A DNA stretch of 64,000 nucleotides from Acidimicrobiales bacterium. Lineage in GTDB: Bacteria; Actinomycetota; Acidimicrobiia; Acidimicrobiales; Bog-793. The notes under the pieces were generated by a model. It did no database searches. It was not told the DNA's origin and saw only the letters and a program-made list of their open reading frames with translations. The stretch is from positions 12,286 through 76,285 of the forward strand of contig DATKRV010000028.1 in NCBI GenBank assembly GCA_035532075.1. The letters are read 5' to 3'. The translations under genes were made by a program, and so were the position numbers. Shown here in pieces: positions 18,670 to 27,095 of the stretch (within the stretch, counting starts at the first letter, position 1; each line of letters begins with the position of its first letter).

Positions 18670-18753
18670 GGGCGAGTGGCGGAATAGGCAGACGCGCAGG
18701 ATTCAGGTTCCTGTGTCCGTAAGGATGTAGGGGTTCAAGTCCCCTCTCGCCCA
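18670..18753 (+). tRNA. tRNA-Leu (anticodon CAG), type II with long variable arm, no encoded CCA
   Basis: Cloverleaf folded by eye: acceptor GGGCGAG/CTCGCCC, D stem GCG/CGC, anticodon stem CAGGA/TCCTG with loop TTCAGGT, and T arm AGGGG-TTCAAGT-CCCCT. Confidence 0.9.
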
Positions 18754-18961
18754 CGCAGGGTTATTTGTAAAACCTGACCGAAAGATTTACGAAACCCCTC
18801 TCAAGGGCCTTCTTGCTGGGGAAATGCTGATCCGGATGGAGATCGTCGAGCGACTAACTTGCGAAACTGTCTTAAATTACGTGATCAGTAAAGGGCTTGA
18901 GCACGTTGATTAGTTTTTGGGCGCGCCAAATTCCCTGTTGTTATTCCCGTGGTGCTCGGAG

Positions 18962-24311: not shown

Positions 24312-25301
24312 TCAGTCTTCAGGTGAGGCGGTGGTGGTGTCAGCGCTGTCGCTTGGAGACTTTGACGGGACAATTTGGTTCCAGCTCTTCTCGGCGTCAG
24401 CGTATCCGTGTGGGTCGATGACGTACGCCTTCTTCAAAAGGAATCGCAACTGGTGGTCCCAAAGCGCCTGAAGTGACGCTTCATCCCCGATTCCCCTAAA
24501 GAAGGTATGACCAATAGCTGCCGCGGGCGTCTGAGCAGCCCTGCCATTGATAGTCATGAAGAAGACCTCTACGCGACGTCTCAAATCTGCTGGCATCCCA
24601 GATTCTTCCAAAAACTGCCCCAGCAGAATTCTGCTTGGATCCATCTGGATTTTGGCGAATCGACGCTCAAATGCTGCATCAACTTCATCGACTCCACGGT
24701 CCTGTGGATTCATTGTTGCGAGTATGTAAAGGTTCGCGGGAATCGAACATTCTGTTCCTGAGGCGACCCTGAATTTCAGTCCCCGTTTGCTTTTTTCGAT
24801 GTAGGTGAGAGCTTCGCCGAATACCCTGCCTGGGTCGACTCTGCTGAGTTCGTCGATAACTATAAATACCATTTCATTCGGATGTTCTACCGCGACTCTG
24901 CACATCTGGAGCAAATGTTTGGGGGTGAGTACGAAACCCCCATTTTCTTCGTCGGGAATATAGCCCTCAACAAAATCTTCGTATTGGTATGACGGGTGGA
25001 ACTGGACAAAGCGGACGAGTTCTGATTTGCCCTTAGCTAACGTCACTGCGATTGCAGAGGCGTACCAGCTCTTGCTCGTGCCGGGGGGTCCAACAAAGAT
25101 GACCCCCCCAAAGTCAGAGAGAAGCTGGTTTGTTGTTAGCAAAATATCGTCGTTGTCTTGCAACACGAGATCCTCAAGGTGTTCAGTGGCATCGTTTGCG
25201 ATATAAGTCGCATTTTCCGGAACAAAGAGATTGAGATCTTGCGCGGAAAGTTCCCGAACTTGTGTTCGCGCAAGTGGCGAATTTGGTGTGTCAGTTGTCA
25301 T
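24312..25301 (-). CDS. mcrB: McrB-like AAA+ GTPase lacking an N-terminal DNA-reader domain
   Basis: Walker A GPPGTSKS at about aa 70, McrB signature FHPSYQYEDFVEGY, Walker B VIDELSR, and ATMNPQDRG (NxxD-type guanine specificity). It is only 329 aa. Confidence 0.8.
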   Translation of the reverse strand: MTTDTPNSPLARTQVRELSAQDLNLFVPENATYIANDATEHLEDLVLQDNDDILLTTNQLLSDFGGVIFVGPPGTSKSWYASAIAVTLAKGKSELVRFVQFHPSYQYEDFVEGYIPDEENGGFVLTPKHLLQMCRVAVEHPNEMVFIVIDELSRVDPGRVFGEALTYIEKSKRGLKFRVASGTECSIPANLYILATMNPQDRGVDEVDAAFERRFAKIQMDPSRILLGQFLEESGMPADLRRRVEVFFMTINGRAAQTPAAAIGHTFFRGIGDEASLQALWDHQLRFLLKKAYVIDPHGYADAEKSWNQIVPSKSPSDSADTTTASPED

Positions 25302-25983
25302 GATTAGAGAGTTTTGTCGAAGCTGATACCCGAGTACCTACCGTTGTTGGTTCATCCGAAGATGAACCTGTTTGCTCGAACCAAGTTGTCACACCGGGGA
25401 CCGGATCCGAAGAGAAGAGGTGGTCGAACTCATCGTCATTTCGCGATGCATAACCGAATTCGTCGCGAAATGACCCGATGAGATTTGTGGCGTTTGGGCG
25501 CTCTGAAGAATAAAAACCGAAATTTCTGAGCAAATAGCCCGCGAGGGCGAGCGCTGGAAGTCGATCTCCGTAGAGGAGGTGTTCGCGGGCAAGAACCCAA
25601 TGTTCGGCAGGCAGGTCGATTCCATCCGTGGCCGGAACATTCACGACTCGGGTCAAGGGTTGATTGGGCCGGAGAGAGGATTTCTGGTAACTGCCAGCCA
25701 AATTGTCATTCATCCACGAACGGCCCGCCTTGTTGGCCTGATGCCAAATAGGGCGGAAATACGGTTTGTTTGAAGGTCCACCTGGGACTTTGAGGTATTT
25801 TTCGAGGCGGTGAATTTCCGGCTGGATACCAGTGCTCTTGCCATTTTCAGCCGCAATTTGTCGGTAATGCAAATAGCCAAGGAAGCCGGGATGAACCCTT
25901 CGATTCAGCAACATTTCGACAGAGGATTGAACGGCGACGATAGTAATCACCCAAATGTGTTGTTGCCCATCCGCACCCGCCAC
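25291..25983 (-). CDS. Hypothetical 230-aa protein between the methyltransferase and mcrB
   Basis: Open frame with coding-like composition. Its stop overlaps the mcrB ATG by 11 nt, and a GTG lies 9 nt after the MTase stop. I recognise no motif. The start is uncertain (ATG 25914 is an alternative). Confidence 0.5.
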   Translation of the reverse strand: MAGADGQQHIWVITIVAVQSSVEMLLNRRVHPGFLGYLHYRQIAAENGKSTGIQPEIHRLEKYLKVPGGPSNKPYFRPIWHQANKAGRSWMNDNLAGSYQKSSLRPNQPLTRVVNVPATDGIDLPAEHWVLAREHLLYGDRLPALALAGYLLRNFGFYSSERPNATNLIGSFRDEFGYASRNDDEFDHLFSSDPVPGVTTWFEQTGSSSDEPTTVGTRVSASTKLSNHDN

Positions 25984-27075: not shown

Positions 27076-27095
27076 ATTGCTAGTATAGCTCGTTA

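Follow-up and report, generated by a model that had tools for sequence, protein, structure and literature searches.

Organization of the locus

The window analysed here, a stretch of 64,000 nucleotides (nt) from an Acidimicrobiales bacterium (contig DATKRV010000028.1, positions 12,286 to 76,285), carries a predicted restriction-modification (R-M) gene cluster in which a 230-aa open reading frame (ORF) of a new, unnamed protein family, referred to here as ORF-X and, among its relatives, as X, lies between a DNA methyltransferase (MTase) gene and the genes for an McrB-like motor and an McrC-like nuclease (Table 1). An earlier note on this DNA had placed the ORF at positions 25291-25983 and had reported that its end overlaps the mcrB start by 11 nt, and both statements are confirmed by the sequence: the TGA of ORF-X (25291-25293) and the ATG of mcrB (25299-25301) are both contained within the string ATGACAACTGA. 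From this overlap, stoichiometric co-expression of ORF-X and McrB may be expected, as the earlier note had proposed. Translation of ORF-X starts with a GTG at position 25983, the first start codon to follow an in-frame stop, which is itself the TAA of the upstream MTase gene located 9 nt before the GTG; because later start codons lose a conserved N-terminal strand (residues 9-13), this GTG is taken to be the true start. A GTG-initiated mcrC begins 3 nt after mcrB, and MTase, ORF-X, mcrB, and mcrC together form one tightly packed minus-strand operon. At the corresponding X/mcrB junction of homologous loci, a 4-nt overlap is found in three cases (L001, L035, L037), and gaps of 9 nt and 23 nt are found in L005 and L004, respectively. 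The existence of 316 homologues, the conserved synteny, and a confident AlphaFold2 model, each detailed below, establish that ORF-X is a real coding gene and not a chance frame.

Motif IV of the MTase reads SPPY (residues 52-55) and its motif I reads DPFMGTGTT (residues 331-339). In beta-class MTases an SPPY motif IV suggests N4-cytosine methylation, and from this motif the enzyme is predicted to produce N4-methylcytosine (m4C); since the nearest solved MTase structures are a mixture of m4C and N6-methyladenine (m6A) enzymes, the modified base is not settled beyond SPPY. Of the 459 residues of the NCBIfam McrB profile, no more than positions 189-358 are covered by the McrB-like protein (E 1e-25), and only its AAA+ part aligns with the McrB entries 6hz4 and 6ut6 of the PDB (E ~1e-26); judged by sequence, it has no DNA-binding domain at its N-terminus. 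Its AAA+ motifs comprise a Walker A with aromatic residue (GPPGTSKSW, 71-79), a Walker B DE (150-151), a consensus loop of the NxxD type (MNPQDR, 197-202), and ERRF (212-215). The catalytic motif of the McrC-like nuclease is intact, with PD at residues 340-341 and EVK at residues 358-360.

Divergent from the MTase gene is a gene for a 96-aa XRE-type helix-turn-helix (HTH) protein, a candidate controller (C) with a presumed regulatory role. The same divergent arrangement is found in L001, where the gene encodes an HTH_3 protein, and in L004, where a homologue with 48% identity adjoins the MTase. The annotated ATG codons of the MTase and HTH genes are separated by 20 nt (27076-27095), and given so short a gap the divergent promoters, together with any controller operator, must be located in or near coding sequence. 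Alignments of MTase homologues start near MTase residue 25-33, and the real MTase start may therefore be further downstream. A scan for consensus promoters returned no excess of sites (3 versus 4.1 ± 1.7 expected from shuffling), while a scan for terminator-like sites returned 12 versus 5.7 ± 2.3 in shuffled sequence, most of them within coding sequence and providing no usable signal.

Table 1. Features of the window and of related loci referred to in the text.
Feature	Size or residues	Position	Strand	Remarks
ORF-X	230 aa	25291-25983	minus	predicted R1-type DNA target-recognition subunit; new unnamed family
Conserved globular core of ORF-X	residues 8-204	25372-25962	minus	homologues align q8-q204; pLDDT 86-98
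Most conserved segment of ORF-X	residues 66-106	25666-25788	minus	VPGGP...KPYFRP...W.N.NLAGSY..SSLR; candidate DNA-contact loops
Ser/Thr-rich, non-conserved C-terminal tail of ORF-X	residues 205-230	25294-25371	minus	pLDDT ~51
ORF-X stop / mcrB start overlap	11 nt	25291-25301	minus	read from sequence
Beta-class N4/N6 DNA methyltransferase (M)	360 aa	25993-27075	minus	Pfam N6_N4_Mtase E 8e-37; PADLOC MTase_II PDLC03316 E 3.9e-160
McrB-like AAA+ motor (R2)	329 aa	24312-25301	minus	Pfam AAA_5 E 4e-16, residues 66-215
McrC-like PD-(D/E)xK endonuclease (R3)	448 aa	22962-24308	minus	Pfam McrBC PF10117 E 1.6e-25; NCBIfam McrC E 3e-12
XRE-type HTH protein, candidate controller (C)	96 aa	27096-27386	plus	divergent from MTase; Pfam HTH_3 E 8.6e-12, HTH_31
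X-McrB (AAA_5) fusions				P0009, P0038, P0042, P0043, P0074, P0077, P0093, P0117, P0126, P0139
Haloarchaeal deaminase-like ORF, Salarchaeum japonicum plasmid NZ_CP085325.1		L030:6587-7063		
Haloarchaeal deaminase-like ORF, Haloprofundus pMHR1-1		L031:6605-7066		
tRNA-Leu(CAG) gene		18670-18754		adjoins low-G+C stretch
ORF	624 aa	18962-20836	minus	overlaps the 336-aa ORF; no Pfam match
ORF	336 aa	20833-21843	minus	no Pfam match

The ORF-X family and its genomic partners

The description of ORF-X as an orphan in the earlier note holds for word-indexed searching only. Specifically, such a search returned two proteins, the identical one from an Acidimicrobiales metagenome-assembled genome (MAG) and a homologue with 39% identity, whereas an exhaustive HMMER search covering 1.84 billion cluster representatives uncovered 316 homologues at E<=1e-3, with 257 still retained at a threshold of E<=1e-10. 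Lengths and fusions were counted among the best 150 representatives, and 123 of these are stand-alone proteins of 185-240 aa. Bacterial relatives are encoded by Actinomycetota (Ilumatobacter, Solirubrobacterales, Streptomyces, Pseudonocardia, Arthrobacter, Rathayibacter, Micromonospora, Coriobacteriia), Bacteroidota (Hymenobacter, Larkinella), Geobacteraceae, Opitutaceae, Gemmatimonadota (Longimicrobiaceae), and Rhodobacterales, and two haloarchaeal plasmids carry homologues as well. No match was found in phage genomes and one weak match was found to a viral contig, indicating that the family is essentially not phage-borne. Among longer forms, P0062 (461 aa) has an N-terminal extension of ~260 aa (residues 1-260) without a Pfam match ahead of the X domain, P0145 has a C-terminal extension of ~125 aa beyond it, and P0011, P0044, and P0190 appear to owe their length to ORFs called too far in DNA of high GC content.

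Members of the family are labelled 'hypothetical protein' in every source, and no description of the family was found in the literature. That no motif could be recognised by eye agrees with the results obtained with tools, as ORF-X is without a match in Pfam, NCBIfam, PADLOC, PHROGs, and PDB sequences. Similarly, a profile built from the 123 stand-alone sequences found no match among PDB sequences (best E 1.3), and no Pfam match at E<=1 was recorded for ORF-X or the 123 family members apart from sub-threshold noise (for example DUF7662 in three members, E 0.037). Scans of divergent and archaeal members against families were likewise empty, and a confident match of ORF-X to a well-characterised family with an unrelated function was found in none of the libraries searched. 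An N-terminal 'DGQQ' was considered as a DUF262/ParB-like DGQQR motif and was rejected, as it is conserved neither in the closest homologue nor in the family.

To place ORF-X in context, 29 related loci (designated by L numbers) were annotated using the proteins of the window as queries, and others were checked through precomputed Pfam hits. The commonest gene order among the annotated loci is MTase, X, domain-less McrB (AAA_5), and McrC, and X is located directly upstream of McrB-McrC in 19 annotated genome or metagenome loci as well as in further metagenome contigs. The MTase gene occupies one of two positions: it lies directly upstream, sharing the strand of the other genes, or it is convergent and located just past mcrC, and in the loci in which it is convergent downstream of mcrC (L004, L013, L014, L021, L022), X remains with mcrB. 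An orthologous N6_N4 MTase is found beside X in 23 of the 25 non-redundant loci; of the remaining two, one is cut by a contig end and the other, from Pseudonocardia lutea (L015), is the only complete X-McrB-McrC locus without it. There, a C5 cytosine MTase (PF00145, E 2e-62; L015:5217-6518) is encoded in the upstream position, which suggests that the type of MTase has been swapped inside an otherwise unchanged system. The MTase gene is the best conserved of the module, with a median identity of 65%, compared with 50% (McrB), 39% (X), and 35% (McrC) for the other proteins.

In addition to occurring as a separate protein, the X domain forms the N-terminus of 10 McrB-type AAA_5 proteins and of 3 ABC-type (AAA_21/AAA_15/SMC_N) ATPases (P0056, P0085, P0122) among the best 150 representatives. 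End-to-end X-McrB fusions are encoded in two genomes, those of Arthrobacter bussei (L018) and a member of the Coriobacteriaceae (L028), in each case followed by McrC and the MTase. In canonical McrB, too, the DNA reader is located at the N-terminus (Bui et al., bioRxiv 10.64898/2026.08.31.748284).

In four further loci the McrBC pair is replaced by other proteins. In Larkinella (L023), the MTase and X are found with an AAA_5 protein and an RE_LlaJI nuclease (PF09563); in a Longimicrobiaceae MAG (L016:7573-9521) and a Geobacteraceae MAG (L025:7467-9529), they are followed by an AAA_21 ATPase and a DUF4276 protein which match HEC-01A/B of PADLOC (E 1e-115 and 3e-75), such that these two loci look like an MTase-protected version of the candidate defence system HEC-01; and in L024, they are found with a PDC-M26A-like protein and a DUF2357/PDDEXK_7 protein. 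X and the MTase are therefore the constant part of these loci, and the NTPase-nuclease machine is the exchangeable part. Together, N-terminal fusion of X and the constancy of X and MTase beside exchangeable effectors constitute the pattern expected of a target-recognition module. Support is thereby provided for one of the two options raised in the earlier note, namely that the ORF encodes a detached specificity domain for a reader-less McrB: X is fused to the N-terminus of AAA_5 proteins, and it is encoded directly upstream of the NTPase even where the MTase gene lies beyond mcrC.

The same gene arrangements bear upon a different assignment, in which ORF-X would be a shared specificity subunit comparable to HsdS of type I systems, which would guide the McrBC nuclease as well as the MTase to one common site. 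In its favour are the nearly constant co-occurrence of X with the MTase, the placement of X between M and R2 in most loci, and the MTase-X junction of 9 nt in the window. However, the match to PADLOC MTase_II makes the 360-aa enzyme of the beta class look like a stand-alone type II MTase, it is transcribed convergently, away from X, in about 8 loci, a self-sufficient C5 MTase takes its place in L015, and no X-MTase fusion was found among the best 150 representatives. Given these observations, a subunit shared with the MTase is considered unlikely.

Conserved core and C-terminal tail of ORF-X

AlphaFold2 prediction of ORF-X from a 2-sequence alignment was useless (predicted local distance difference test, pLDDT, 40), while prediction from 62 homologues yielded a model with a mean pLDDT of 90, a predicted template modelling score (pTM) of 0.84, and 182 residues at pLDDT >=90. 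In this model, the core (residues ~8-204) adopts a mixed alpha/beta fold. Foldseek returned no neighbour of the model in the PDB (best E 3.9, template modelling score, TM, <0.2) or in BFVD (best E 4.8), and as modelled, ORF-X is unlike the ERCC4, B3, SRA, YTH/EVE/PUA, winged-helix, and nuclease folds in these databases. No likeness in sequence or fold was found to the known N-terminal readers of McrB proteins (the DUF3578/ADAM domain of EcMcrB, the YTH-like domain of TgMcrB, and the B3-like domain of LlaJI.R1), nor to EVE/SRA/PUA-like reader domains in Pfam, PDB profile, and Foldseek comparisons.

Conservation across the 123 sequences is highest for G97 and R153 (100% each), followed by S103 (98%), N94 (96%), P78 (95%), P74 (93%), R105 (91%), W90 (89%), and S98 (89%), and the invariant or near-invariant set also includes Y37, H31, and H128. 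No column exceeds 77% D+E, and invariant acidic residues are lacking; D alone reaches at most 66% in any column of the family, and the protein of the window has N154 at this position. Such a set of residues is more readily reconciled with contacts to bases and phosphates, or with a pocket that binds a base, than with the active site of a metal-dependent enzyme. Residues 66-106, the most conserved segment, consist mostly of loops and short strands that are nevertheless confidently modelled, and they may contact DNA.

With respect to the C-terminus, which the earlier note had described as an acidic, Ser/Thr-rich tail and a plausible flexible tether, the present data allow a narrower statement. 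The last ~26 residues (205-230) do form a tail, but the preceding segment DDEFDHLFSSDP...TWFEQ (residues 181-204) is part of the fold, containing the conserved residues F186, L189, F202, and E203 at pLDDT 91-97. Most homologues end at ~205-215 aa and are without a tail. In the fusion protein of L018, the X part ends at residue 211 and McrB homology begins at residue 244; the tail of ORF-X thus sits at the linker position of the fusion proteins, only these last ~26 residues qualify as a tether, and the tail may be the remnant of a fusion linker.

It is conceivable that the invariant polar residues (H31, Y37, N94, S103, R105, H128, R153) form an active site, in which case ORF-X would have an enzymatic or regulatory role instead of that of a passive reader, for example as a metal-independent DNA-processing enzyme, a glycosylase, or an activator or inhibitor of the NTPase that senses a non-DNA cue. 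A model without Foldseek neighbours is compatible with such a role, as is the pairing of X with a deaminase-like ORF, and no nuclease, on the haloarchaeal plasmids discussed below. Nevertheless, an obligate MTase implies that the methylation status of DNA is what is sensed, a nuclease is already present in every complete bacterial locus, and in all characterised homologues the reader is located at the N-terminus of McrB (Bui et al., 10.64898/2026.08.31.748284), which together make an enzymatic or regulatory role improbable.

Very unlikely as well is the other option raised in the earlier note, that of a small type II restriction endonuclease (REase) paired with the upstream MTase and adjacent to an independent type IV McrBC system: ORF-X does adjoin the MTase, co-occurs strictly with it, and is of typical size for a class of enzymes so diverse that family matches are often missing, yet conserved acidic residues of the kind expected are lacking, Foldseek found no structural match of the PD-(D/E)xK, HNH, GIY-YIG, or PLD-like type, X stays with mcrB where mcrB and the MTase are apart, X is fused to NTPase N-termini, the adjacent McrB, having no reader of its own, would be blind without X, and the operon already has a dedicated nuclease in McrC.

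Proposed function and relationship to known McrBC-type systems

Taken together, synteny, fusion, and conservation data suggest, with a probability of about 70%, that ORF-X is the R1-type target-recognition subunit of a non-canonical McrBC R-M system of the composition C-M-R1-R2-R3. Given that the cassette of reader and MTase has been recombined with other NTPase-nuclease effectors, it most likely serves as a portable 'unmethylated-site sensor', not as a nuclease. We infer the following mechanism. The MTase would methylate a short cytosine-containing site on host DNA, and ORF-X would bind that site only if it is unmethylated, making contacts through the Arg/Asn/Ser/His/aromatic loops of residues 66-106 together with H31, Y37, H128, and R153. 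ORF-X would then dock onto the R2 hexamer, following which NTP-driven translocation and McrC would bring about cutting of the foreign DNA. That the site read by ORF-X is an unmethylated, cytosine-containing one stands at roughly even odds; the C5 MTase of L015 fits a cytosine-containing target, and the strongly conserved MTase suggests that the family shares a single specificity.

A more far-reaching proposal, to be regarded as tentative, is that ORF-X represents a new-fold family of methylation-sensitive readers which, together with an MTase producing m4C (or 5-methylcytosine in one lineage), may constitute a portable self/non-self cassette serving at least four unrelated effectors. These would be McrB/McrC, the LlaJI-type AAA+ protein and nuclease, the ABC-ATPase/DUF4276 pair of HEC-01, and the DUF2357-PDDEXK_7 protein with its PDC-M26A-like partner; the cytidine-deaminase-like protein of the haloarchaeal plasmids is a possible fifth.

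Several observations weigh against the assignment of ORF-X as a target-recognition subunit. Firstly, the role of X as a DNA reader is argued wholly from genomic context and fusions, since its fold matches no known DNA-binding domain. Secondly, the MTase is conserved far above X, a difference that fits one fixed specificity and would equally fit an X that does not read sequence. Thirdly, the family is acidic (median pI 5.6), which is unusual, though not disqualifying, for a DNA binder. Finally, on the haloarchaeal plasmids, the MTase and X are followed by an overlapping ORF of 153-158 aa in place of an NTPase or nuclease, which leaves the partner of X there uncertain. This ORF has a sub-threshold match to cytidine/dCMP deaminases (PF00383, E 2e-4, 21.6 bits versus a cut-off of 25) and contains a PCGxC motif, but has H-x-x-E in place of H/C-A-E. 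Speculatively, should the protein be active in deaminating DNA, it would be blocked directly by the N4-methylation that the MTase brings about.

The closest counterparts of the proposed system are LlaI and BsuMI, described as 'non-canonical McrBC' systems that target DNA site-specifically (Bui et al., 10.64898/2026.08.31.748284). At the system level, the window locus has every feature of this class that can be assessed from sequence: a motor without a fused DNA-binding domain, a downstream McrC-like nuclease, and an MTase. The position of R1 is taken by a candidate gene that lies directly upstream of and overlaps mcrB and whose domain is fused to McrB elsewhere. LlaI, from Lactococcus lactis plasmid pTR2030, comprises LlaI.C, M, R1, R2, and R3; of these, LlaI.R1 is a two-domain protein of 329 aa with an ERCC4-like domain 1 and an acidic face, which binds DNA that is not methylated and sits docked on the outer side of the R2 hexamer (Bui et al., 10.64898/2026.08.31.748284). 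The LlaI locus resembles that of the window in having an HTH controller, an MTase, a small separate protein ahead of a domain-less McrB-like motor, and then a PD-(D/E)xK nuclease. In contrast to the two-domain LlaI.R1, ORF-X has a single core of ~200 aa without an ERCC4 neighbour, and alignment of the 123-sequence X profile with a 252-aa LlaI.R1 ORF, the one frameshifted sequence from plasmid pUCCL629C, gave a probability of 0.16% and E 0.38 (hhalign). The partner enzymes also differ, as the LlaI MTase is annotated as an adenine methylase and the LlaI nuclease as a member of the LlaJI family, while the window encodes an SPPY-type N4/N6 MTase and a PF10117 McrC. The LlaI-like locus of pUCCL629C, a dairy plasmid of Lactococcus sp. 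(NZ_PP589679.1, L032:2128-4943), lies beside abiA and itself looks decayed: the adenine methylase is present in small annotated fragments and the R1 frame is broken near codon 18 and near the 3' end, while R2 and the LlaJI-family nuclease are intact.

BsuMI of Bacillus subtilis (YdiO/P and YdiR/S/YdjA), which cleaves site-specifically at CTCGARB (Bui et al., 10.64898/2026.08.31.748284), similarly has an operon of R1, McrB-like R2, and McrC-like R3 protected by cytosine MTases. It differs from the window system in that its MTases are encoded in a separate operon and in that AlphaFold reportedly fails on BsuMI.R1 (Bui et al., 10.64898/2026.08.31.748284), whereas ORF-X is modelled confidently. 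A Bacillus plasmid locus (H25) inspected for BsuMI.R1 (YdiR) proved to encode a fused LlaJI-type system, and the plasmid loci inspected contained no YdiR homologue.

In LlaJI, R1 consists of a DNA-binding domain at the N-terminus that is fused to an McrB-like AAA+ motor, and R2 is the RE_LlaJI nuclease. The solved N-terminal domain of LlaJI.R1 has a B3-like fold. LlaJI is likewise an MTase-protected, site-specific relative of McrBC, and its fused R1 layout is reproduced by the X-McrB fusions; unlike the LlaJI.R1 domain, X gave no B3-like match when compared with the PDB using Foldseek. With the canonical type IV McrBC systems of E. coli and T. gammatolerans, the window system shares a homologous McrB AAA+ motor with an NxxD loop and a PF10117 McrC. 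Canonical McrB, however, has a fused N-terminal reader of modified bases and no cognate MTase (Bui et al., 10.64898/2026.08.31.748284), whereas the window encodes a separate reader candidate of a different fold as well as an MTase. As the window system carries an MTase, it should therefore target unmodified DNA. MTase-associated branches were noted in a 2024 census of McrBC systems and deferred to a later publication (PMC11090510).

The operon is located within a region of atypical base composition, with a G+C content of ~50-55% across ~19.5-27.5 kb of the window versus 58-65% in the flanks. The low G+C content and the neighbouring tRNA-Leu gene are consistent with placement of the R-M operon in a horizontally acquired, integrated island, and a search for att-type direct repeats bounding such an island beside the tRNA-Leu gene returned none that were convincing. 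[quoted passage not shown] Two related loci on metagenome contigs appear to be eroding: McrC is missing in L036, McrB, McrC, and the MTase are fragmented in L038, and both adjoin transposase or integrase genes. This state is consistent with frequent gain and decay of an island-borne system.

In terms of its wider significance, the locus presents no new principle: its architecture is known, and its probable reader belongs to an undescribed and apparently unrelated family whose members also work with other effector machines. McrBC motors have mainly been viewed as parts of type IV enzymes that carry a fused reader of modified bases, and structural characterisation of their relatives with MTase protection and site specificity (LlaI, BsuMI, LlaJI) is only just under way. 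To these the locus would add a third, unrelated solution for R1, the sequence comparison having been made with LlaI.R1 alone. The occurrence of X in both split and fused forms provides a natural means of approaching the docking of a trans-acting reader on the McrB hexamer and the path taken by the DNA, which the LlaI preprint names as an open question (Bui et al., 10.64898/2026.08.31.748284). Having no structural neighbour, ORF-X may add a new DNA-recognition fold, and a new DNA-binding reagent specific for sequence and methylation might be derived from it. Finally, X is accompanied by a single, well-conserved MTase in different phyla and beside different types of effector, a clear example of modular exchange between the sensing and killing parts of defence systems.

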